Shown here piece by piece: positions 447 to 64,000 of a DNA stretch of 64,000 bases. The DNA lies in assembly GCA_964467735.1 (NCBI GenBank), contig CAYXSR010000001.1, forward strand, positions 23,244 through 87,243, in the 5' to 3' direction. A model generated the notes under the pieces. That model saw only the letters and a program-made list of their open reading frames with translations. It did no database searches and had not been told where the DNA came from. How positions within the stretch are numbered: the first letter of the stretch is position 1; each line of letters starts with the position of its first letter. The DNA comes from an uncultured Pseudomonadales bacterium. GTDB lineage: Bacteria > Patescibacteriota > Microgenomatia > UBA1400 > CAYXSR01. The position numbers and the translations under genes were made by a program.

Positions 447-1997
447 CTAAAAAAACTCATCTAATTGTTCATCTTTAAGTCGATATTGTAAAGCTTCTGC
501 TAAATGAACTGTCTTTATTTGTTCCTCATCAGCTAAATCAGCAATTGTCCGGGCAACTTTTATTACTCGAAAATAGGATCGAGCAGAAAGATTCATTTTT
601 ACAGCCGCTTGTTGCATTAACTGGAGACAAAAAACATCTAAAGAACAGACTTCTTTTACTTGTTTTGTATTCATTTCACTGTTGCACACTAGTTTTAACT
701 TTAATTTCCTAAATCTTTCTAATTGTTTGTCTCTTGCTTGTTGAACCCTCTTTTGAATTTGTCGACTATTTTCTCTTTTTGTTTTATTGATTTTTGTCAA
801 CTTCTCTATTTCAACTTCAGGAACATGAATGTGGACATCAATTCTATCCATTATTGGTCCAGAAATTCTTTTCCGATAACGAGCAACCTGACCAGCAAGA
901 CAAGTACAATGTTTTTTGGCTGATCCTAAATAACCACAAGGACAAGGATTAGAAGCTGCAACTAATAAAAATTTTGAGGGAAAAATAACACTTCCTGCTG
1001 CTCGAGAAATTTGAACAAAACCATCTTCTAAAGGCTGTCTTAAAGCTTCCAATACATTTCTTGGAAATTCAGGGAATTCATCCAAAAATAAAACTCCCCT
1101 ATGGGAAAGACTTATTTCACCAGGATTAAGCTTACTTCCTCCACCAATTAAACCAATTCTAGAAATTGTGTGATGAGGAGCCCGAAAGGGACGATTTGTA
1201 ATAATTGCTTTATCATCGGGCAAATTACCAGTAATTGAATATATTTTTGTTGCTTCCAAGGCTTCTTCTTCTGTTAATTCTGGAAGAATAGATGGTAATG
1301 TCCGAGCTAACATTGTTTTTCCTGCTCCTGGTGGACCAATCATTAAAATATTATGACCACCAGCGGCAGCTATCTCTAAAACTCTTTTTGCTTGTTCCTG
1401 GCCAACAATTTCTACCATATCAAACTCGAAATCTTCTTTTTGTTTTAAATCTTTAAAAGAAAGGTTCTTCTGAGTTTCGATTTTCTTGGTTTCGTTTAAA
1501 TGGTGGAAAAGATCGCGCAAAGAAATAACTGGATAAATCTCTAAATCATTAATGACTGCCGCTTCTTTTGCATTAATGGCCGGTAAGAATAATTTTTTTA
1601 GTTTCTTTTTTCTCGCTAAAAGAGCCATTGGTAAAACACTGTTTGTATGTCGCAAAGAGCCATCTAAAGACAATTCACCTACCATTAATGAGTCTTTAAG
1701 ATCACTTGGAATTTGTCCCGAAGCTGAAAGGATTGCTAAGGCGATTGGTAGATCATAAGCCGGACCTTCCTTTGGTAAATCTGCCGGAGTGAGATTGATA
1801 GTAATTTTATGACGAGGAAATTCAAAACCAGAATTTTTAATGGCCGCTCTCACTCTTTCTTTTGCCTCCTCAACTGCTTTACCCGGCAAACCTACAATCG
1901 TAAAAGACGGGAGTGACCGAGAACTTATATCAACTTCTACCTCGACAATAACTGGTTCTAAACCAACACAAGCACCAGAAAAAACCTTTGCTAACAT
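447..1997 (-). CDS. comM: Mg-chelatase-like AAA+ ATPase, YifB/ComM family
   Basis: 518-aa ORF. N-terminal region matches ComM, Walker A is GPPGAGKT, the C-terminal Mg-chelatase subunit ChlI-like region is present. Start probably the Met in MLAKVF. Confidence 0.85.
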   Translation of the reverse strand: MLAKVFSGACVGLEPVIVEVEVDISSRSLPSFTIVGLPGKAVEEAKERVRAAIKNSGFEFPRHKITINLTPADLPKEGPAYDLPIALAILSASGQIPSDLKDSLMVGELSLDGSLRHTNSVLPMALLARKKKLKKLFLPAINAKEAAVINDLEIYPVISLRDLFHHLNETKKIETQKNLSFKDLKQKEDFEFDMVEIVGQEQAKRVLEIAAAGGHNILMIGPPGAGKTMLARTLPSILPELTEEEALEATKIYSITGNLPDDKAIITNRPFRAPHHTISRIGLIGGGSKLNPGEISLSHRGVLFLDEFPEFPRNVLEALRQPLEDGFVQISRAAGSVIFPSKFLLVAASNPCPCGYLGSAKKHCTCLAGQVARYRKRISGPIMDRIDVHIHVPEVEIEKLTKINKTKRENSRQIQKRVQQARDKQLERFRKLKLKLVCNSEMNTKQVKEVCSLDVFCLQLMQQAAVKMNLSARSYFRVIKVARTIADLADEEQIKTVHLAEALQYRLKDEQLDEFF

Positions 1998-2041
1998 CAA
2001 CAATATTATTTATAAATCTTAATTAAAAGTAAATAGGCCTA

Positions 2042-10355: not shown

Positions 10356-11177
10356 TTACTTTTCTAAAACTATTTCTATTTCTTTTTTAAGTTGATTAAT
10401 TTTATTTTTAGGAATCAATGTTTTTAAATTAGTAAAATTTAATATATCTCGACAAGAAACAATTCCCCTTCCTAAAAGCATTTCTCTATCTTGCTTTGAT
10501 AATGATGATAAACAAGTAATTGGATATAAACCACTTTTCTCCACCAAAGATTGTAAACTCCACTCCTTTTGATAATTCCACCCAATGGCTTTAATACCAA
10601 CACAATTACAATACTTAATTGCTTTTGATGTTAATTTTGTATTAGTTACTAACCACATTTGATTAATATTATTTGTCTTAAAAATATTAATCTTTGTTAA
10701 TTTAATATCTAAAAATCGGGCATAAACATATAAGGCAGTTTTAACATCTGTTTTTATACCCTGTTTGTTATGAAATTTAGCCTCAATTGCAAAAAGATCG
10801 TTTTCTTTCTGAGCAAGAATATCGATTTCGTGACTAATACATTTTCCTTTAACATAATAGGAAACTTTTGTTTTAAATCCACTGGTATTAAGTATTTTGG
10901 CAAAGAAATTTTCAAAAGGGTAACCAGATGGCCCTAAAGCCATTATTGCCTGTTTTAAATTATAACGAGATGAAAGAAAAGGTCGTTTTTTATCTAGTAA
11001 TTGGGCAACTATTTTATATATCTCTTTGGTGGAGATACCATCGTAAAGATATTGTTTCAGTTCTTTGATAATATCTTTTCTTATATTTTTATCAATGCCG
11101 GATGCTGTTAAAGAATTATTTACTTTATTCTCGGAGAAAGGCTCTAACAAGCCATTAGCTTTCAAAACACTAATCAT
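10356..11177 (-). CDS. ATP-cone domain fused to a restriction-endonuclease-like (Mrr_cat, PD-(D/E)xK) domain
   Basis: N-terminal ~90 aa resembles the ATP-cone (ISVLKANGLLEPFSENKV...ISTKEIYKIVAQLL). Central region has FE...HEIDIL...FAIEAKF, matching the Mrr catalytic core D...(D/E)xK. Followed by a ~90-aa C-terminal region with conserved Cys. Confidence 0.6.
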   Translation of the reverse strand: MISVLKANGLLEPFSENKVNNSLTASGIDKNIRKDIIKELKQYLYDGISTKEIYKIVAQLLDKKRPFLSSRYNLKQAIMALGPSGYPFENFFAKILNTSGFKTKVSYYVKGKCISHEIDILAQKENDLFAIEAKFHNKQGIKTDVKTALYVYARFLDIKLTKINIFKTNNINQMWLVTNTKLTSKAIKYCNCVGIKAIGWNYQKEWSLQSLVEKSGLYPITCLSSLSKQDREMLLGRGIVSCRDILNFTNLKTLIPKNKINQLKKEIEIVLEK

Positions 11178-23040: not shown

Positions 23041-23499
23041 TTAACGTTTTGGAGATTGTTTCTTTCTTCTTGCCTTACCGCCAGTGCCTACTTTTCTTCT
23101 CTCTTTCATCCGAGAATCTCGAGTAAGAAAACCTTTTTTCTTTAAAATAGGTTTGTATTTTTCTTCGTCTAATTTCACTAAAACCCTAGAAATACCATGA
23201 ACTACTGCCTCGAGTTGTCCTTTCTTTCCAGAACCTTCAACTTTGGCAGTAATTAAATATTTATCAACAATATTACATGTTCTTAAAGGACTAAGATAAA
23301 ACTTTTTTAACACTTCTCCAGGAAAATATTCTTCTATTGGTTTATTATTAATTAAAATTTTTCCTTTTTTCTTAGGAAAAAGTCTTACTCTAGCAATTGC
23401 TTTTTTTCTCCGTCCCACTGCCCAAACATATGAATTACTAGCTTTATTTTTTGTCTTTGTTGATGTTTTAGACGGTTTTGATAGTTTTTTAGTTTTCAT
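23041..23499 (-). CDS. rpsI: 30S ribosomal protein S9 (with Lys-rich N-terminal extension)
   Basis: YVWAVGRRKKAIARVRL core. Confidence 0.9.
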   Translation of the reverse strand: MKTKKLSKPSKTSTKTKNKASNSYVWAVGRRKKAIARVRLFPKKKGKILINNKPIEEYFPGEVLKKFYLSPLRTCNIVDKYLITAKVEGSGKKGQLEAVVHGISRVLVKLDEEKYKPILKKKGFLTRDSRMKERRKVGTGGKARRKKQSPKR

Positions 23500-53190: not shown

Positions 53191-55446
53191 TTAATCTGTT
53201 TTGATTTCTATATTAATATTTTTTAAATTATAAGGAATGTTTTTTCTAATTAATAATTTTTGAGGAGTTAATAAAATTTCTGCTTTACTAAAATTAGGTA
53301 AAGTTTTTAAATATGCTTCTGCTTCCACGGGTTTAAGTCCTTTTAAATTTTCTCTTATTTGTTCGATATTTAATCTAGGAATAAGCTTTATTTTTGCATC
53401 AGTTTGTAAAAATACTGTGTTTTTCTTAGTGCTAGTTTCTATAATCTCAAAATCTATTTGTGAATTATCAAAATCGTAGCCTTCTGGGATAGATTCAGCA
53501 AAAATATCTTTTAAGAGAGATGATAATTCTTTAGTTTCATAAACAAAACCGGTTAATTTTAATTTTAATTCCAAACTAATCTTGTCTGCCTCATCACCCT
53601 CTTGAGCAGAAAATTTTTTCTCTAGAACTTCTATTTCTTCAGATATAATTATTTGTTCTGATGAAGAAATCTTACTCTTAATTTCTTGTTTACCTTTTTC
53701 TATTAATTCGTCGGTAAGTTCTGCTAATAAATTCTCCATATCTTTCTCATCAACAGCTTTAATTTGTCTACTCATACCCCCACTCAAACCTTCATCAGTT
53801 TTAGCACTATATAATGATGATGGATATTCCTTAAAAGTAAAATCACTACCAGCAGATAAATTATATTCTGCACCAATAGAAGCAGCTACAACTTTAACTT
53901 GTTGTTTCCCATAAACAATATTTTCTCCTTCTTCGGTAGCCTCGCTTGATTTGGAAGCAACCGTTACTTCTTCGTCTAAAAGAAATTTCAAATCGTCGCC
54001 ACCAATTAAAACAGCTCCCTTATTAAAAACTTTCTCGGTATCTGTTTTATTGAAAATTGTTATCTCGCCTGTGGCTTTATCGCCAATAAGTTTTTCCCCA
54101 GTTGTTTCTTTTGACTTATTACCATTAACTTCTTCTTGCACTTCATTAGCTTTCAAAAAAAATGAATCATCCTCTATTTTTGATTCTGAGGCTAAAGTAA
54201 CTCCTATCTCTTTATCTAAATTTTTGGGGGAAACAAAAATTAATATTTTTGCTTTTGGTAGATACCAAAAAGTGGCAAAAGCCAAAATTGTCAAAAAACC
54301 TAAAAATAATAATAAAAGACTTAAGAACATAAATTTTTTCTTCCTATTTTTAAAAGAAAATGAAAACAATCTAAAAGAAGACAAAACTCTTTTTATTCCT
54401 CTTATAATTAACAGTGGGTTCAGGCTAAATTTCGTTTTCTCTAGATTTCTACCTGTTATTTGTATTTCTGGAGAAACCGAACGAAGATTATCTAATTCTT
54501 CTTTAGTTACCTTCTGTTCTGGTTCAACAGTGGGTAGTTCTTTACTATCTAAAATATCGCCTCCAACTTTGAATCCTAGTTCTTCTGCTCCGGTTATTGA
54601 TTCTGTCTGTTCTTGTTCTTCATCTGGTGTTTCTGAAGAAGTTTCTTCTTTTTCTTTTGTCAATTCTTTAGTCTCTTCCTCTACAATTTCAAAACCTAAA
54701 GATTTGGCTATTTCTGCTCCTCCAGCAACAACTACCGCTTTAACAGCAATATTTGACTCTAATGTTTCTATTTTAGGAAGATGTAAAAAATTGAGTTCCG
54801 CCTGCCAATCAAAAGAGATCAATTGTTGTTTAGCTTCTTCAAAGTCAACTATCCCATCAAAAACAATTATTCTAGCTGGAAAAGTTTTGTCTTTACCAAA
54901 ACGATTTAATCCTTCATTAACATCAGCAGCTAAATCTTCGCTCCTCCCAACTAACTGTGATTCTTTGATTCTTCCAAATTCTACCCAAAAAATTGTTGCT
55001 TGAGTCTCTTCTAAACCAACAAAAATTGCATTAACAGGAACGCCTTCTTCTTTTTTTAAATACTCTAAAAGAGCTTCTAAAGTAACTACAAAACCTAATG
55101 GTTTTAAAGCTAGCTTCTCACATAAAGATTTTAGTAAAAGCTTTTTACTCGCTATTATCTGAGAACCTGAAGTCCACTCTTGAGGTAAACCAAAAATGAT
55201 TGCTTTTGGCTCAGGATCAAGTCCTTCACCGGCACTACTGATTGTTTTATCAACTGCCTGAAGAAAAGATTCTTCACTTTCACCATCCCATTCTTCTGTA
55301 GAACTCAATTTTAAAGTTACTGTTTTCCCTTCTTTTACCGCCCAAACAGCAGATTTAACAGTTTCTTGAGCAATTTCTAAAGCAAAAAAAGTCTCTTGTT
55401 GTCCTTTCTTAGTTGCAAATCGAGAGATAATATTTTTCAATTCCAT
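53191..55446 (-). CDS. bitopic membrane protein: N-terminal cytoplasmic degenerate actin-like (ASKHA; PilM/FtsA/GspL-like) domain, acidic linker, single TM, large extracytoplasmic domain
   Basis: Residues about 15-250 show the actin-fold pattern: FALEIAQETVKSAVWAV for the first hairpin, ...LGFVVTLEALLEYL, GLEETQATIFWV in place of DxGxxxT, VVVAGGAEIAKSLG. TM at about residues 350-375 (FMFLSLLLLFLGFLTILAFATFWYL). About 375 aa outside. Confidence 0.45.
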   Translation of the reverse strand: MELKNIISRFATKKGQQETFFALEIAQETVKSAVWAVKEGKTVTLKLSSTEEWDGESEESFLQAVDKTISSAGEGLDPEPKAIIFGLPQEWTSGSQIIASKKLLLKSLCEKLALKPLGFVVTLEALLEYLKKEEGVPVNAIFVGLEETQATIFWVEFGRIKESQLVGRSEDLAADVNEGLNRFGKDKTFPARIIVFDGIVDFEEAKQQLISFDWQAELNFLHLPKIETLESNIAVKAVVVAGGAEIAKSLGFEIVEEETKELTKEKEETSSETPDEEQEQTESITGAEELGFKVGGDILDSKELPTVEPEQKVTKEELDNLRSVSPEIQITGRNLEKTKFSLNPLLIIRGIKRVLSSFRLFSFSFKNRKKKFMFLSLLLLFLGFLTILAFATFWYLPKAKILIFVSPKNLDKEIGVTLASESKIEDDSFFLKANEVQEEVNGNKSKETTGEKLIGDKATGEITIFNKTDTEKVFNKGAVLIGGDDLKFLLDEEVTVASKSSEATEEGENIVYGKQQVKVVAASIGAEYNLSAGSDFTFKEYPSSLYSAKTDEGLSGGMSRQIKAVDEKDMENLLAELTDELIEKGKQEIKSKISSSEQIIISEEIEVLEKKFSAQEGDEADKISLELKLKLTGFVYETKELSSLLKDIFAESIPEGYDFDNSQIDFEIIETSTKKNTVFLQTDAKIKLIPRLNIEQIRENLKGLKPVEAEAYLKTLPNFSKAEILLTPQKLLIRKNIPYNLKNINIEIKTD

Positions 55447-58267: not shown

Positions 58268-58954
58268 CTAGTCGCTGTTGTCAACTAGTTCAACTTTTCT
58301 ATTAATAATTTTTTTCTTATCGTGACGATTTACTGCACTAACAACAATCACATTTTCCCCAGGAAAAAGTTTAAATTGATAATTAAATCTACCTTCATCA
58401 TCAACATTAATTAATTTATCATTTATAAAAATCGATGTTTCTTTTTTAGTCTGGCCACTTATACTAATTTTCTCTTGAGTAAATTTTTCTCCTTCTTTTG
58501 GTTGATCTAACTTCAGCATCGGTAGACCATAAAAAGTCTTTAATTGAACAATAATGTAAAAAATTAGCAATAAAAAAATAAGAGCACATATTCCAATAAT
58601 TCCAGTTTTTGGTATCCAGAATTTTTCTTGCCAGTTTTTAAGAAAACTTTTTGGGATGACTTTTTCATCGTTATCTTTTCTTTTCGCATCGCGTCGAAAT
58701 ATTGCCACCATCCTTTTAGGATCTAGTCCTAAAAAATCGCTATAAATTTTTATAAACCCTTCTATAAATGGTGCAGATGGTAGTTTAGAAAAATCGTTTT
58801 GCTCTAAAGCAATCAAGGTTTTCAAAGGAATTAAAGTCTTCCTTTGAACCTCTTGTAGTCTTTTCTTTTTTTTAATTCTTTCTTTTTTTAAAATCTCAGC
58901 AAGGGTTTTCATCTTAAATTCATTGCTCTGTGGCAGAAGGGTTTTCTTCTTCAC
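58268..58954 (-). CDS. RodZ-like protein (N-terminal HTH, TM, C-terminal DUF4115-like domain)
   Basis: HTH LKTLAEILKKERIKKKKRLQEV, single TM at about residue 130. Confidence 0.55.
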   Translation of the reverse strand: MKKKTLLPQSNEFKMKTLAEILKKERIKKKKRLQEVQRKTLIPLKTLIALEQNDFSKLPSAPFIEGFIKIYSDFLGLDPKRMVAIFRRDAKRKDNDEKVIPKSFLKNWQEKFWIPKTGIIGICALIFLLLIFYIIVQLKTFYGLPMLKLDQPKEGEKFTQEKISISGQTKKETSIFINDKLINVDDEGRFNYQFKLFPGENVIVVSAVNRHDKKKIINRKVELVDNSD

Positions 58955-61019
58955 TTCTTAAAACTTCACTAGCATTGGAGATAAGAACATCTCTAGGTTT
59001 AGAGCCTTCCGAGGGGCCAACAATTCCAGCAGATTCTAATTGATCAAGAATCCTAGCTGCTCTAGCATAACCAATAGAAAGTTTTCTTTGTAATAAAGAC
59101 GCGGATGCTTTTTTATTTTGACAAACTATCTTTATTGCCTCATCAAAAAATTCATCTGTTTCTTCTGTTTGTAGAGTACCGCTAGCAACTTTATTCGCAT
59201 GATACTTGTTAGTTACTTCTTCTGTATATTGCGGTTCTATACCTGTTTGTTTGAGAAAATCAATAACTGCTTTTATTTCTCCATCAGAAACATAAGCTCC
59301 TTGAATTCTTGATGGTTTTGCTTGTTCTGGAGGAATATAAAGCATGTCTCCTCTCCCTAATAACTTTTCAGCTCCAGGAGCATCAATAATAACTCTTGAA
59401 TCAATCATCGAAGAAACATTAAAAGCAATCCTTGCTGGAATATTTGCCTTAATTAAGCCAGTAATAACGTCAACTGAAGGACGCTGAGTTGACAAAACTA
59501 AATGGATACCAGTTGCTCTTGCCATTTGGGCAAGTCTAGTAATTGTATCTTCAACTTCTGATGGGGAATAAAGAATAACATCGGCTAATTCATCAATAAT
59601 TATTACTAAATACGGAAGCAATTGAATTCCAGAAATCTCATTATAACTTTCAATATTTCTTGCTCCTGCTTCAGCAAACATTTTGTAACGTCGTTCCATT
59701 TCAGCAATTGTCCATTTTAAGGCAGAAACAACTTTCTCTGGTTCGACAATAACCGGAGTTAAAAGATGAGGAATACCATTATATTGAGTTAATTCTACTC
59801 TTTTTGGATCAACTAAAATTAGTTTTACTTCACTTGGAGAAGTCCTAAAAAGAACAGTTGTTATAAAATTATTAATCGAAACTGACTTTCCAGACCCTGT
59901 AGCTCCCGCCACAAGGATGTGAGGCATTTTCGCTAAATCAGCCACTACCGGTTTCCCAGAAACATCTAGTCCTAAACCGATCGCTAATTTTGACTTTGTT
60001 TTTTTCATTTCTGACGAAGCTAGCATTCTTTTCAAAGTAACCACTTCTAAGGAATGATTTGGTACTTCAATACCAACTAGAGACCTTCCTGGAATTGGTG
60101 CTTCAATTCTGATCTGTCCTGTGGGAGCAGCTAAAGCTAATGCTAAATCATTAGATAAGGCAGTAATTTTGGAAAGTTTTGTACCTAAAGAAATTTCTAA
60201 AGCATATTGAGTAACTGCCGGACCACCATTAACTTCTGCCACTTTTGCTTGAATCCCAAAGCTTTCTAATGTTTTCTCAATAACATTTGCGTTTCTTTTT
60301 ACATCTCCTCTATCTGCCTCACTTCCAATTACATCTGTCAAAATATCTAAAGGGGGATATTGCCAAACTTTTTGTTGAACATTAGATAAACTGCTTATTG
60401 TCGAAGAAGGAAGAGAAAAGTCTTTTTCATTTTTAGATTTATTATCTCTCATTTTATTCTTACCTTTTGTCTCCATAGATGATTCTATATTTTTATTATT
60501 AGTTACTTGAATCTGCATTAATTTCCTGGAAGAAGATAAATTCTTCTTTAAAAATGAAATAAGAGACTTAAAAAAGAAAACAATATCTTCAAAAGAAGTC
60601 TCGAATAAAACTGTTATTCCAATAAAAACTGAACCTAAAAGAACAATAAAAGCACCAACTGATGTTATCAAACCAGCAATTCCTTGCCAAATCTGCAAAC
60701 CGATAATTCCACTCCTGCTTAAACCAATAAGAGAAAATAATAATAATAAAGCACCAATAAAAACATTCATCCGGGCCAGTTTTCCCGAAAAGCGAGCAAA
60801 CATTGAACCACTAATAATGGCTACGAATGGTAGAATTATTGTTCCCCAACCAAAGAATTTAATCAAAAGGTCATTAAGAAAAATCAATAATTCGCCTTTT
60901 TGAGCAAAAGAAATCATTACCAACCCGGCAAAAATAAATGAAAGAGTACTTAATACTGAAAAAACAGTCCCTCTTTTAAGACGATATTTTATTTTTCTTT
61001 TTCTTCCTCGTCTTCCCAT
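58920..61019 (-). CDS. ftsK: DNA translocase FtsK/SpoIIIE
   Basis: N-terminal 4-TM region, motor with VAGATGSGKS Walker A, C-terminal winged-helix gamma domain. Confidence 0.9.
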   Translation of the reverse strand: MGRRGRKRKIKYRLKRGTVFSVLSTLSFIFAGLVMISFAQKGELLIFLNDLLIKFFGWGTIILPFVAIISGSMFARFSGKLARMNVFIGALLLLFSLIGLSRSGIIGLQIWQGIAGLITSVGAFIVLLGSVFIGITVLFETSFEDIVFFFKSLISFLKKNLSSSRKLMQIQVTNNKNIESSMETKGKNKMRDNKSKNEKDFSLPSSTISSLSNVQQKVWQYPPLDILTDVIGSEADRGDVKRNANVIEKTLESFGIQAKVAEVNGGPAVTQYALEISLGTKLSKITALSNDLALALAAPTGQIRIEAPIPGRSLVGIEVPNHSLEVVTLKRMLASSEMKKTKSKLAIGLGLDVSGKPVVADLAKMPHILVAGATGSGKSVSINNFITTVLFRTSPSEVKLILVDPKRVELTQYNGIPHLLTPVIVEPEKVVSALKWTIAEMERRYKMFAEAGARNIESYNEISGIQLLPYLVIIIDELADVILYSPSEVEDTITRLAQMARATGIHLVLSTQRPSVDVITGLIKANIPARIAFNVSSMIDSRVIIDAPGAEKLLGRGDMLYIPPEQAKPSRIQGAYVSDGEIKAVIDFLKQTGIEPQYTEEVTNKYHANKVASGTLQTEETDEFFDEAIKIVCQNKKASASLLQRKLSIGYARAARILDQLESAGIVGPSEGSKPRDVLISNASEVLRSEEENPSATEQ

Positions 61020-61053: not shown

Positions 61054-62388
61054 TTATTTTACTATAAATTTTCCTCTGTTTAAAAATTCTAATCTTTTAC
61101 CCTCCTCTAATAAAATTACATCTCTCTCCTGATATCCCATTTTTTGAGCTATCTTACTGTAGGAATACATATGTCGATAATCTCCTCCTATAGGAAGTAA
61201 ATATTTTGCTTTTATCAAAAACAAAAGCATTCTAATATCACCACTGGCACCATGTCCCGAAACATAAAGATTTTCTTGAGTTTCATAATAATGAATATTC
61301 ACTTTTCTCTTTGATAAATTATCGATTAATGTATTGACATCAATAATAACTCCCGGAGGAGAAGGATCAGCAGAAAATATTACCGTATCACCCATACCTA
61401 ATTTAACAAGTCTATGTTTGTCTCGACTAATTCTGTCTAAAGCTGAACCTTTTTGACCGTAACTTCCGGCAGCAATAACGGTAATTTTGTTTCTGGCTGA
61501 TTTCTTAATTCTAAAAGGCTTAATGAAATGTTTTTTTAGAGAATGGAAATAACCTAATTTTCTGCCAATCTCTACTGACTGTTCCATTGACTTTCCTAAA
61601 AATACTATTTTACGACCAGTATTAATTGAAGCAACTACTGCTTGCTTAATACGAGAAATATTGGAGGTTACGGTAGTAACTAATACTAATCCTTTTGCTT
61701 TGTGCATAATATTAGTAAAATTCTCTTCAATATTTGCTTCTGATTTCGTGTAACCTGTTTTTGTTGATCCTAAACAATCAGAAAGAAGTAATAGTGGCGG
61801 CTGTTTTCTACTAAGAAAAGCAACTTGATGGATATCAAACGGCCGATCATCAAATGGGGTAAAATCAAATTTATAATCAGCAACATGAAAAATATTTCCT
61901 ATTGGACTTTCAATAAAAAGACCTAAGCTTTCCGGAACTGAATGATTAATATGAAAAGCAGTCACTTTAAAGTCTCTAAAGAAAATTGTCGATCTTTTTT
62001 CGGTAAAATTAATAAATTCTAAGTTTTTAAGCGATAGACCAAAATCCTCTACTTTTGATTTAATAAACTCCTCAGCTAACTTAGAACTAAAAATAGGAAT
62101 ACTAGCATTACTTTTAGAAAAAAAGTGGGGAATTGCTCCATAATGATCAAAGTGGGCATGAGTAACAAAAAGCCCTTTTATTTTATGTCTTCTTTTAAGA
62201 AGATAACTAAAATCTGGGATGAAAAGTTCTTCTTGATTGGCATTCGGTTCATCGGGAAATCCTATTCCACAATCAACAATAATTATTTCTTTTTCTGTTT
62301 CGTAAACAAACATATTTTTTGTTACCGCTCCCACACCACCTAAGGGAATTATTTTTAACTTATTCATTGGTTTTTTAAAATCTTTCAT
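61054..62388 (-). CDS. rnj: ribonuclease J-like (metallo-beta-lactamase + beta-CASP), lacking the C-terminal domain
   Basis: IIPLGGVGAVTKNMFV, HAHFDHYGAIP. 444 aa. Confidence 0.75.
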   Translation of the reverse strand: MKDFKKPMNKLKIIPLGGVGAVTKNMFVYETEKEIIIVDCGIGFPDEPNANQEELFIPDFSYLLKRRHKIKGLFVTHAHFDHYGAIPHFFSKSNASIPIFSSKLAEEFIKSKVEDFGLSLKNLEFINFTEKRSTIFFRDFKVTAFHINHSVPESLGLFIESPIGNIFHVADYKFDFTPFDDRPFDIHQVAFLSRKQPPLLLLSDCLGSTKTGYTKSEANIEENFTNIMHKAKGLVLVTTVTSNISRIKQAVVASINTGRKIVFLGKSMEQSVEIGRKLGYFHSLKKHFIKPFRIKKSARNKITVIAAGSYGQKGSALDRISRDKHRLVKLGMGDTVIFSADPSPPGVIIDVNTLIDNLSKRKVNIHYYETQENLYVSGHGASGDIRMLLFLIKAKYLLPIGGDYRHMYSYSKIAQKMGYQERDVILLEEGKRLEFLNRGKFIVK

Positions 62389-62394
62389 AAACTT

Positions 62395-63468
62395 CTAAAA
62401 AGAGGGTAAAAATTCTTTTAAATTACTCTGATTTAAATGAAAATGTTCCCCCTTTCCTTCAACAATTAATTTACTAACTCTGCGGCATATTTTTTCAAGA
62501 TTTCTCTCTAGGCTCCTCATGCCGGCATCAAAGCCTAAAGGTCTAACAATTTTTGGCCATAAAGAACTATCAATTGTCAGGTTCTCTGTCCCTAATCCAG
62601 ATTCCTTCATAATCCTGGGTAGAAGATATTGTTTGGCAATAACTGTCTTTTCTTCATCTGAATAGGATGGCATCTGAATAACTTCCATCCTATCCAGAAC
62701 AGCAGTTGAAATATTTGCTGTGTTATTACAAGTAGTTACAAATAACACTTTCGATAAATCAAAAGGGTAGTCTATGTAATGATCAATAAAAAACATATTC
62801 TGTTGAGGATCGAGTACTTCAACTAAAACTCCCATAATATCACTCCGCGCATCTTCAGCCACCCGATCGATTTCATCTAAAAGAATGACTGGATTTCTAC
62901 TTTCTGCTTTTCTTAACGACTTAATAATCCAACCTGGTTCGTTGTCTGGATGAAGTTTTGATTGACCTCTAAGATCTAAAGCTGATCCCATTCCTCCAAA
63001 AGGAATACGACTAAATTTTCTTCCCATTGTTTCTGCCAAAGAATAAGCAAATGATGTTTTTCCTGTTCCCACTAAACCTACTAAACAAAGAATAGGAGAA
63101 GTTATTGGGTTATTTTTTTGTTTATTCAATCTTATTACCGATAGAAATTCTAAAATTCTCTCCTTAACGTCCTCCATACCATAGTGATATTTATTCATTA
63201 TTTCTTTTGCTCTATCTAAGTCTAAAATATCTTCTGTTTCTCTTTGCCATGGAAGAGAAATAAGCCAATCAAACCAATGAGTTATTTTCTCATATTCTTC
63301 AGCATAACCACCAAATTTTGCCATTCTTACCAAGCGTACCAACATATTTTCCGCTTTTTCTTTTAATCCTTCGGGGACACCACTTTCCTGAAGTTTCTTT
63401 TTTAATTGAGAAACTTCTTCAAAAAGATTACCTTGTACTGAAGGTGTATCAACACCAGTGTTATTCAT
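62395..63468 (-). CDS. Lon-like AAA+ ATPase module without N-terminal (LAN) and without peptidase S16 domain
   Basis: Strong similarity to Lon from the helical region preceding the AAA+ core (HWFDWLISLPW, HYGMEDVKERILEF) through Walker A (GLVGTGKTS), Walker B (ILLDEIDR) and sensor 2/Arg (LDRMEVIQMPSY). ORF ends where the protease domain would start. Confidence 0.7.
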   Translation of the reverse strand: MNNTGVDTPSVQGNLFEEVSQLKKKLQESGVPEGLKEKAENMLVRLVRMAKFGGYAEEYEKITHWFDWLISLPWQRETEDILDLDRAKEIMNKYHYGMEDVKERILEFLSVIRLNKQKNNPITSPILCLVGLVGTGKTSFAYSLAETMGRKFSRIPFGGMGSALDLRGQSKLHPDNEPGWIIKSLRKAESRNPVILLDEIDRVAEDARSDIMGVLVEVLDPQQNMFFIDHYIDYPFDLSKVLFVTTCNNTANISTAVLDRMEVIQMPSYSDEEKTVIAKQYLLPRIMKESGLGTENLTIDSSLWPKIVRPLGFDAGMRSLERNLEKICRRVSKLIVEGKGEHFHLNQSNLKEFLPSF

Positions 63469-63522
63469 TAAATATCATTATAGAAGGAAAGTCTCTGTCT
63501 TACAATAAAAAACAAGTAAGAA

Positions 63523-64000
63523 TCAACGATTAAATCGAGGTTGTTTATGAAATCTCTTTTTTGATTTTTTTTGGAAAGAGGACTTATTCTTATTTTTTTT
63601 AATTAAACTATCATCAAGAACCATCGAAAGATTTATTCTTCCTAAATCATCGATTTCTATTACTTTTACTTGAACTTTATCACCAATTTTTACGATATCC
63701 TCTGGGTTGGAAACAAATTCTGGAGACATTTTGGAAACATGAACTAAGCCTTCTTTACCCGGTAACACTTCAACAAATGCTCCAAAAGGCTGAATTCTCT
63801 TTACTTCGCCTTCAAAAACTTCTCCTACTTGAACTTCCCTTATTAAACCCTTAACCCAATCGGTTGCCTTTTTTACTGATTCTGGATCAACAGCAGAAAT
63901 AGTTACTTTCCCTTCATCGTTAATATCCATTGTTACTCCAGTATCGCTAATAATTTGACGAATCATTCTTCCTCCTGGTCCAATTACTTCGCCGATTTTA
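63523..64000 (-). CDS. pnp: polynucleotide phosphorylase, C-terminal KH + S1 domains (N-terminus beyond window)
   Basis: KH (IISDTGVTMDIND), S1 (GEVFEGEVKRIQPFGAFVEV). The open frame continues to the window edge. Confidence 0.8.
   Translation of the reverse strand, partial: KIGEVIGPGGRMIRQIISDTGVTMDINDEGKVTISAVDPESVKKATDWVKGLIREVQVGEVFEGEVKRIQPFGAFVEVLPGKEGLVHVSKMSPEFVSNPEDIVKIGDKVQVKVIEIDDLGRINLSMVLDDSLIKKNKNKSSFQKKSKKRFHKQPRFNR

Follow-up and report, generated by a model that had tools for sequence, protein, structure and literature searches.

What remains of Lon when the domain that binds its substrates and the domain that degrades them are both missing, and only the motor between them is encoded? 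Lon is regarded as a quality-control protease that is nearly universal. According to a review, all Lons carry an ATPase domain and a protease domain (PMC9569914). The question is raised by a gene in a 64,000-nucleotide stretch of DNA (the window; positions 23,244 to 87,243 of contig CAYXSR010000001.1) from an uncultured bacterium of the Microgenomatia, in the Patescibacteria or candidate phyla radiation (CPR). The open reading frame (ORF), at positions 62395..63468 of the window, is complete, with an ATG start, 357 aa and a TAG stop, and lies on the minus strand (-), as do all other features of the window located below. It encodes a stand-alone ATPase of the AAA+ type that is derived from Lon. 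Hundreds of orthologues of about 350 aa exist in Patescibacteria. In this gene, a large bacterial radiation keeps only the Lon motor under strong selection, with the parts that touch the substrate rebuilt.

The 357-aa protein contains a Lon-type AAA+ module, consisting of the three-helix bundle (NTD3H), the alpha/beta subdomain, and the Lon lid. Pfam reports AAA (aa 127-265) and Lon_lid (aa 288-339) only, with no match to LON_substr_bdg or Lon_C. Likewise, the NCBIfam model TIGR00763 (lon) is matched only at its positions 253-569 of 795. These data bear out the original prediction, made from the DNA sequence before this analysis, that the gene encodes an orphan Lon AAA+ module without the N-terminal LAN domain and without the peptidase (P) domain. 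The protein fails the curated equivalog cut-offs for Lon, scoring 330.5 bits against TIGR00763 (cut-off 608) and 270.5 bits against NF008053 (cut-off 891), and neither Pfam nor NCBIfam holds a model that is specific for the short family.

The best matches among solved structures are all LonA proteins, including that of B. subtilis (3m6a, E = 3.5e-83), in which residues 18-354 of the query align with residues 9-338 of the chain. Identity to LonA is 39-45% over the NTD3H bundle, the alpha/beta subdomain, and the lid. The membrane anchor or helical-hairpin insertion in the AAA module and the P domain that mark LonB, LonBA, or LonC were not found, as the alignments contain no insertion relative to LonA, Pfam reports no P domain, and an AlphaFold2 model has no extra element. 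This model, which was built from 16 family sequences (predicted local distance difference test score 86.5, predicted template modeling score 0.79), superposes on the three-helix bundle and AAA+ module of Lon with template modeling (TM) scores of 0.77-0.87. When compared over 338 columns with 6n2i, a structure of residues 235-584 of E. coli Lon, it gives a TM score of 0.85 normalized to the query and 0.89 normalized to the target. Because the target-normalized score is this high, the natural protein and the E. coli fragment can be considered nearly coextensive.

The N-terminal helical bundle (aa 10-71, positions 63256..63441; model helices 10-28, 33-50, and 55-71) corresponds to the NTD3H of LonA, or the C-terminal part of HI(CC), with the alignment to Lon starting at about residue 250. 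Residues W68 and W74 of the 'DWxxxLPW' motif in this region are kept as in LonA. The large (alpha/beta) AAA+ subdomain follows (aa 84-268, 62665..63219), with model strands at residues 126-130, 152-156, 194-198, 242-247, and 261-265. The lid, or small alpha-helical subdomain (aa 269-357, 62398..62664), carries the sensor-2 residue Arg318 at 62515-62517. The protein terminates with ...KEFLPSF, where LonA runs on into the linker toward the peptidase domain. The ORF had been expected to align with Lon from the helical region before the AAA+ domain onward, and the 3m6a alignment, TIGR00763, and the AlphaFold2 model all agree with this, extending from the three-helix bundle to the end of the lid.

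The short architecture is not peculiar to this genome. In a homology search of 5.8 billion proteins, the best 120 clusters are 59-100% identical to the window protein, are 342-375 aa long, and carry AAA and Lon_lid only; the named clusters among them are Patescibacteria, Microgenomates, or Beckwithbacteria. When a distant member (P0155) served as the query of another search, the best 120 clusters had the same architecture and 342-507 aa; some of them are named Dojkabacteria and one Nomurabacteria. Degenerate P domains were considered for longer members (P0139, P0146, P0132, P0149, P0151) and rejected, as the additional residues form Q/P/S/N tails of low complexity that match nothing in Pfam. 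A protein identical to the product of the window ORF is also present in the public collection (P0001), and an identical protein was recovered from an assembly of an independent read set.

We also scanned GTDB with one genome per species, which yielded 29 complete orthologous loci and 50 canonical LonA genes. The 29 loci are titled Shapiro-, Ames-, Levy-, Roizmanbacteria and "Patescibacteria group", and every one of them has an ORF of 346-432 aa that ends 0-2 residues past the lid. All 50 canonical LonA proteins from the same scan are about 750-870 aa long and continue for about 195-260 residues past the lid. The short architecture is therefore fixed across the Patescibacteria sampled, which comprise Microgenomates (among them Beckwith-, Shapiro-, Ames-, Levy-, and Roizmanbacteria), Dojkabacteria, and one genome labelled Nomurabacteria. 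In a neighbor-joining tree of AAA+ modules, 43 protease-less proteins are split from 55 canonical LonA proteins in 100/100 bootstraps.

When the ORF is compared with an orthologue of 89% identity that stems from an independent metagenome, the ratio of nonsynonymous to synonymous substitution rates (dN/dS) is 0.083. The corresponding values for the nearby genes rnj and ftsK are 0.073 and 0.081, and the gene is thus under purifying selection as strong as that acting on these two. The short family is old, vertically inherited, and selected. Two parts of the original prediction are upheld by these findings. The gene is functional rather than decaying, given its dN/dS value, the common end of all 29 loci, and the uniformly short proteins among the best 120 clusters of each search. 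In addition, the shared stop just past the lid indicates that the 3' end does not run on into a Lon_C domain.

Two side observations arose from these collections. Several GTDB records (L004, L008, L010-L012, L016, L018, L020, L022, L023) have a CPR-type short Lon ATPase, in most cases within an rpsO-pnp-X-rnj-ftsK block where X is the short Lon gene, and yet are titled "uncultured Gammaproteobacteria" or "Candidatus Methanoperedens"; these labels are probably wrong. Furthermore, the top-scoring matches when all proteins were compared with the representative library, all from outside the window (P0121-P0141, P0148, P0154, P0157), are proteins of 900-3900 aa with two or three tandem Lon-type AAA+ modules. 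At least one of these multi-motor Lons, P0121, ends in a Lon peptidase-type domain with a GPSAG motif.

To see which parts of the motor have been maintained, residues were counted in 229 non-identical protease-less members and 137 canonical LonA proteins aligned to the family profile, two sets that are not phylogenetically balanced. The Walker A motif GLVGTGKT (63055..63078; GPPGVGKT in canonical LonA) contains Lys137, the Walker B motif VILLDE (62872..62889) contains Asp198 and Glu199, and the trans-acting arginine finger is Arg260 of LDRMEV (62689..62691). Each of these four residues is present in 229/229 short proteins. The sensor-1 Asn (N248 in the window protein) is also found in 229/229, and the sensor-2 Arg (R318) in 228/229. 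The pre-sensor-1 beta-hairpin region (LDPQQN...DHYIDYPFDLS..., 62725..62814), which ends at Asn248, aligns with Lon without a gap. In Lon, Y456 and E458 of this hairpin couple the pore loop to the nucleotide state (PMC7239648), and the short family keeps these coupling residues as Y/F231 and D233. The bridging Glu447 of Lon is Gln222 in the window protein and is Gly, Lys, or Asn in some other members. All residues needed for ATP binding and hydrolysis are retained, and the protein is predicted to be a competent AAA+ ATPase of the HCLR clade.

The original prediction had treated the motifs of the module as intact. This holds for nucleotide hydrolysis, for which every motif was found, but not for pore loops 1 and 2, which are not Lon-like. 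In Lon, the Tyr of pore loop 1 and the Ile or Val that follows grip the polypeptide, as seen for Y398 of Y. pestis Lon (PMC7239648) and Tyr397 of MtaLonA (PMC8503904). The canonical loop reads RGHRRTY[IV]G[AS][LM]PG, with Tyr in 137/137 LonA proteins; the strict motif occurs in 49/50 of the GTDB LonA loci, and the remaining locus has RGHRKTY. In the window protein the loop has been rebuilt as RGQSKLHPDNEPG (62932..62970). His173 replaces the gripping Tyr and is followed by Pro174, Asp175, and, two residues later, Glu177, such that the aromatic-hydrophobic pair is absent and His173-Pro174 stands in its place.

These changes recur throughout the short family, whose pore loop 1 can be written as RGQS[RK]x[H/S/N..]P[DE]xEPG. 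The position of the Tyr is most often occupied by His (121 of the 229 proteins), followed by Ser (19), Asn (19), Tyr (18), Phe (16), Arg (10), and still other residues. Pro occupies the site directly after it in 158/229, the second position after the Tyr site (Gly in LonA) is Asp or Glu in 219/229, and the fourth (Leu or Met in LonA) is Glu in 223/229. Moreover, the first of the tandem arginines in the LonA loop (R395) has become Ser in 197/229.

Pore loop 2 has been altered to a similar extent. This region reads IDRVAEDARSDIMG in the window protein (62830..62871), where the canonical D[FYW]RGDP is lost, its aromatic residue is Ala, and GDP has become SDI. Across the short family the aromatic is replaced by Ala, Ser, Thr, or Gly, and GDP by [AS]D[IV]. 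The equivalent aromatic of MtaLonA, which has a role in contacting substrate, is Trp431 (PMC8503904). The wording "Lon-type unfoldase" that was originally applied to this protein is doubtful and not supported as it stands, because the gripping Tyr of all LonA proteins is now His, Ser, Asn, Tyr, Phe, or Arg, followed by Pro and two acidic residues, and the pore-loop-2 aromatic has been lost.

A third difference lies at the mouth of the pore. The entry loop between the second and third bundle helices, AKFGGYAEEYE (63289..63321), is 3 residues longer than that of LonA. Its Tyr55 aligns approximately with M284 of Y. pestis Lon, a correspondence that the indel leaves open to a shift of 1-3 residues. 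In the substrate-bound Y. pestis enzyme, M284 is part of the lining of the entry pore, above the ATPase ring (PMC7239648). This column is Tyr or Phe in 212/229 short proteins versus Ala, Met, Gly, or a gap in LonA, and the aromatic is frequent, not universal, among the species-level loci (20/29). The short module is also more acidic, with a mean isoelectric point (pI) of 6.1 versus 7.3 for that of LonA. Another recurrent feature is a C-terminal tail of the form ...[FY][LI]Px[W/Y/F], which is aromatic in 19/29 species-level loci. Given these frequencies, the entry-loop Tyr and the aromatic tail were both rejected as universal features of the family and serve only as leads.

How might such a protein work? 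It is a functional, stand-alone AAA+ ATPase derived from LonA that has kept the three-helix bundle, the alpha/beta subdomain, and the Lon lid, and has lost the N-domain and the Ser-Lys peptidase domain. It probably assembles into an ATP-cycling ring, most likely of six subunits, since the arginine finger acts in trans and the equivalent fragment of E. coli Lon packs as an open hexamer. Processive threading of polypeptides in the style of Lon would be unlikely, because pore loop 1 has exchanged its pincer for a Pro/acidic motif, and pore loop 2 its aromatic for small residues. Rather, client proteins would be bound, held, or remodelled in an ATP-driven manner without being degraded, and the sites of contact may be the acidic pore and the longer entry loop with its aromatic residue. 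Of the roles named in the original prediction, it is the alternative one, a chaperone, that would fit best. On balance we lean, with confidence only slightly better than even, toward an ATP-driven holdase or remodeller that engages its clients at these two sites, and away from a classical Lon threading unfoldase.

Several considerations weigh against this proposal. The function of every member of the short family is read from sequence and a structural model, and the aligned sets behind the residue counts are phylogenetically unbalanced. The case for a ring that lacks a peptidase domain is drawn only from the trans-acting arginine finger and the crystal packing of the E. coli fragment, and in Lon itself the P domain supplies much of the stability of the hexamer. 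Tyr or Phe is kept at the pore-loop-1 site in 15% of members, and His, its commonest replacement, might still contact a polypeptide, in which case translocation would be possible. The loss of the bridging Glu could weaken the coupling between subunits. Lastly, proximity to the groESL genes speaks for the proposal, but it reflects a single rearrangement in one Roizmanbacteria-like subclade (L013 7760-9838, L022 7869-9865, L024 7876-9873), in which the Lon-AAA gene is divergently adjacent to groES-groEL, with a gene for an RNaseH_like protein (PF04308), in place of pnp or rnj, next in order. No operator of the CIRCE (controlling inverted repeat of chaperone expression) type was found within 3 mismatches in the spacers between groES and the Lon-AAA gene or upstream of the window gene, and a heat-shock operator shared with groESL was rejected for this reason.

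The best of the alternatives, which we nevertheless regard as distinctly unlikely, is a split protease. In such a system the ATPase would dock onto a separately encoded peptidase (S16/Lon_C, ClpP, HslV, or similar) and would still feed it substrate. Partnerships of this kind are common among AAA+ unfoldases, with ClpX/ClpP and HslU/HslV as established examples, and the aromatic C-terminal tail could in principle dock like that of HslU. However, the terminal aromatic is missing in about one-third of the species-level members, the window protein has no IGF-type loop insertion, and the pore loops that would be needed for threading into a peptidase are degenerate.

Searches for a partner gene point in the same direction. 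Pfam scans of 23 window ORFs revealed no Lon N- or P-domain other than a Lon_C-like domain of ComM. When the N- and P-domains of 50 canonical Lons were compared by tblastn with 555 kb of sequence, made up of the window and of 33 related loci that reach up to 10 kb from the gene, the only match was again ComM (window 1653-1967). A split-gene partner near the ORF was therefore rejected, in agreement with the original prediction. Nor does any peptidase gene occur as a conserved neighbor among the loci compared. The ComM/YifB-type protein itself (447..2003) comprises ChlI, Mg_chelatase, and Mg_chelatase_C domains, and its weak Lon_C match falls within the N-terminal domain.

Published protein families provide a broader view. 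The CPR protein-family table of PMC6744442 (Supplementary Data 1) contains a single Lon family, fam11706, with 3172 proteins and the KEGG assignment K01338 "ATP-dependent Lon protease". This family is present in 911 CPR and 983 non-CPR bacterial genomes, and only 56% of its members have the full LON_substr_bdg + AAA + Lon_C architecture (PMC6744442). These figures are consistent with, and do not prove, a short CPR form that has been lumped together with Lon. No other family in the table has Lon_C in its dominant architecture, such that the one widespread CPR family with this domain is Lon itself, which is a further argument against a separately encoded peptidase of the Lon type. Our search of the literature on Lon in Patescibacteria or CPR found no paper that describes a protease-less Lon, and the lumped fam11706 is its sole trace. 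The closest full-length Lons were also looked up for a CPR origin, and the few that have names are Clostridiales.

More doubtful than a split protease is a role for the protein as an accessory of RNA decay, in which it would work alongside PNPase and RNase J, perhaps as an assembler or remodeller of a degradosome or as a factor that removes RNA-binding proteins. This idea arises from the location of the gene. Upstream is the 3' end of pnp (63523..64000), which encodes the KH and S1 domains of PNPase and runs off the window, and 54 nt (63469..63522) separate its stop codon from the start codon of the ORF. Downstream, a spacer of 6 nt, AAGTTT (62389..62394), lies between the TAG of the ORF and the ATG of rnj (61054..62388), which codes for an RNase J of 444 aa without an RNase_J_C domain. 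The next gene of the conserved block is ftsK (58920..61019). The original prediction had rnj overlapping the ORF by a few nucleotides, which the spacer contradicts. Its more important point, that the tightly packed neighbors exclude the missing domains, still holds, because with pnp ending 54 nt upstream and rnj beginning 6 nt downstream there is no room for a LAN or S16 domain. As an aside, the rnj product of the closest orthologous locus is similarly short (437 aa), whereas orthologues in other CPR genomes have 552-569 aa and contain the RNase_J_C domain.

The gene order rpsO-pnp-X-(udg)-rnj-ftsK-HTH-...-alaS is shared by the window, the locus of the 89%-identical orthologue, a Microgenomates genome with a 62%-identical orthologue, and most of the 29 species-level loci. 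It is also found in the distant genome labelled Nomurabacteria, whose orthologue is about 44% identical. The short gap to rnj and the absence of a terminator-like site between the ORF and rnj suggest that the gene is probably co-transcribed with rnj, and perhaps also with pnp. The pnp-ORF spacer contains a sigma-70-like site, TTGTAA-17-TATAAT (63505 to 63477), which is a consensus match only; such matches are no commoner in this region than in shuffled sequence.

Although this order and close spacing would suit a partnership with the two RNA-degrading enzymes, the entire block nusA-infB-rpsO-pnp ... rnj-ftsK-HTH-alaS is syntenic. The adjacency to pnp and rnj would thus mainly reflect a backbone position from an early CPR ancestor, rather than a specific pairing, and we take this inherited gene order to be weak evidence of function. 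Indeed, the gene has remained intact after leaving pnp and/or rnj in several lineages (L013/L022/L024, L086, L087, L088, L014/L015/L025). In a Dojkabacteria genome it occupies an unrelated context, and two other genomes keep only parts of the block. The lower pI of the short module and its gain of two acidic residues in the pore also argue against the threading or binding of RNA, and nucleic-acid binding was set aside as unsupported. Separately, we noted that in the related genomes L002 (199-4221) and L085 (1-606) the strand of the short Lon gene also carries hrcA-grpE-dnaK-dnaJ, which lie a few kb upstream and precede nusA-infB-rpsO-pnp-lonAAA. This heat-shock operon thus belongs to the same conserved backbone.

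Less probable again is a nucleotide-dependent switch or scaffold. A protein of this type would bind and hydrolyze ATP without performing any work at a pore, would serve as a regulator or assembly factor, and possibly would not form a closed hexamer. Such a role would account for the disappearance of substrate-contacting aromatics from both pore loops and for a bridging Glu that is not strictly kept, and the equivalent E. coli fragment, which has no P domain, forms an open spiral rather than a closed ring (PMC6722904). What weighs against this explanation is the strong conservation of the rebuilt pore loop 1, in which the Pro, the Asp or Glu, and the Glu are each present in 69-97% of members and the flanks LRG...EPG are invariant. 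Because the Pro/acidic motif and its flanks are conserved, this loop presumably still has a specific task. Conservation extends to Y231 and D233, through which the pore loop is coupled to the nucleotide state.

Finally, a lon pseudogene created by truncation or frameshift, or an artefact of assembly, would explain the short length and nothing further. Both are refuted by the same boundaries in all 29 species-level loci and in hundreds of clusters that come from independent assemblies, by the low dN/dS, by flanking genes that leave only 54 nt upstream and 6 nt downstream, and by the identical protein assembled from an independent read set.

The proposed holdase or remodeller can be placed among several known systems. 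Relative to LonA (endopeptidase La, MEROPS S16.001-type), for example that of B. subtilis, E. coli, M. taiwanensis, or Y. pestis, the short protein has the same Walker A and B motifs, sensor 1, arginine finger, sensor 2, pre-sensor-1 hairpin, and fold. It differs in lacking the LAN/N-domain, the long coiled-coil helix, and the peptidase domain, in its rebuilt pore loops 1 and 2, in an entry loop that has an aromatic residue and is longer by 3 residues, and in forming a separate clade. The name "Lon protease" is inapt for a protein in which the N-domain, the peptidase domain, the pore-loop Tyr, and the equivalog cut-off all fail. Its boundaries are almost equal to those of the E. coli Lon fragment 235-584 (PDB 6N2I), a proteolytic fragment made in the laboratory that is stable, binds ADP, and forms an open hexameric spiral in crystals (PMC6722904). 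That fragment is man-made and has canonical pore loops, whereas the CPR protein is natural, is under selection, and has changed pore loops.

It has been recognized that Lon domains have been lost, inactivated, or recombined in evolution (PMC9569914). LonC (e.g., MtaLonC), ComM, RadA/Sms, and S16 proteins of the YlbL type keep a Lon peptidase-type domain and have lost or replaced the active ATPase; the short CPR protein is the reverse, with an ATPase that looks active and no domain of the peptidase type. The second nucleotide-binding domain (NBD2) of ClpB/Hsp104 and ClpX without ClpP are protease-free AAA+ remodellers of the same superfamily. Like the ring proposed here, they stand alone, are driven by ATP, and work on proteins that they do not degrade. 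The AAA+ module and HI(CC) region of LonA resemble ClpB (PMC6722904). However, ClpB/Hsp104 NBD2 and ClpX keep an aromatic pore loop 1 and thread their substrates, whereas the short family has largely lost this aromatic, and the short protein has neither an M-domain nor a second AAA ring. A non-proteolytic role for a Lon-related ATPase is also known from BrxL, which functions in BREX phage defence. Membership in a defence system was rejected for the present gene, as the PADLOC profiles gave no BrxL match and only weak generic AAA matches (best DolB, E = 1e-6), and its neighbors are housekeeping genes rather than those of a defence island.

Until now this stand-alone Lon motor has been known as "AAA family ATPase" (NCBI) or "ATP-dependent Lon protease" (JGI), and the loss of its domains has gone unremarked. 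Automated labels of this kind (JGI, KEGG K01338) credit CPR bacteria with too large a proteolytic repertoire. That reduced genomes lose domains is no surprise in itself. The family does provide a natural experiment, in which a Lon motor is found without the N-domain, the peptidase chamber, and the pore-loop Tyr, and it asks whether a ring is possible without a P domain. A protein of about 350 aa is small, predicted to be soluble, and easily expressed, so these questions are directly testable.

A more far-reaching version of the proposal is that in much of the CPR the protease-free motor is the only protein of the Lon lineage. Its substrate-contacting aromatic would now lie in the entry loop instead of in pore loop 1, its pore would have turned acidic, and it would represent a AAA+ holdase or remodeller of a new mechanistic type, whose bearers have given up Lon-type proteolysis. 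We consider this unlikely, though worth stating. If true, the family that about 900 CPR genomes are listed as having under the name "Lon protease" (fam11706, PMC6744442 Table S2) would be no protease at all, and the clients would perhaps be basic, such as ribosomal or RNA-binding proteins.

Two other genes encountered in the window deserve brief mention. An ORF of 751 aa with no Pfam match (53191..55446) lies between alaS and a sortase gene. A related genome keeps this position, and the orthologue there matches Baseplate_J weakly. Elsewhere, a 273-aa ORF (10356..11177) has an unusual combination of an ATP-cone with weak matches to Mrr_cat (restriction-endonuclease-like) and to an AF1548-like C-terminal domain.

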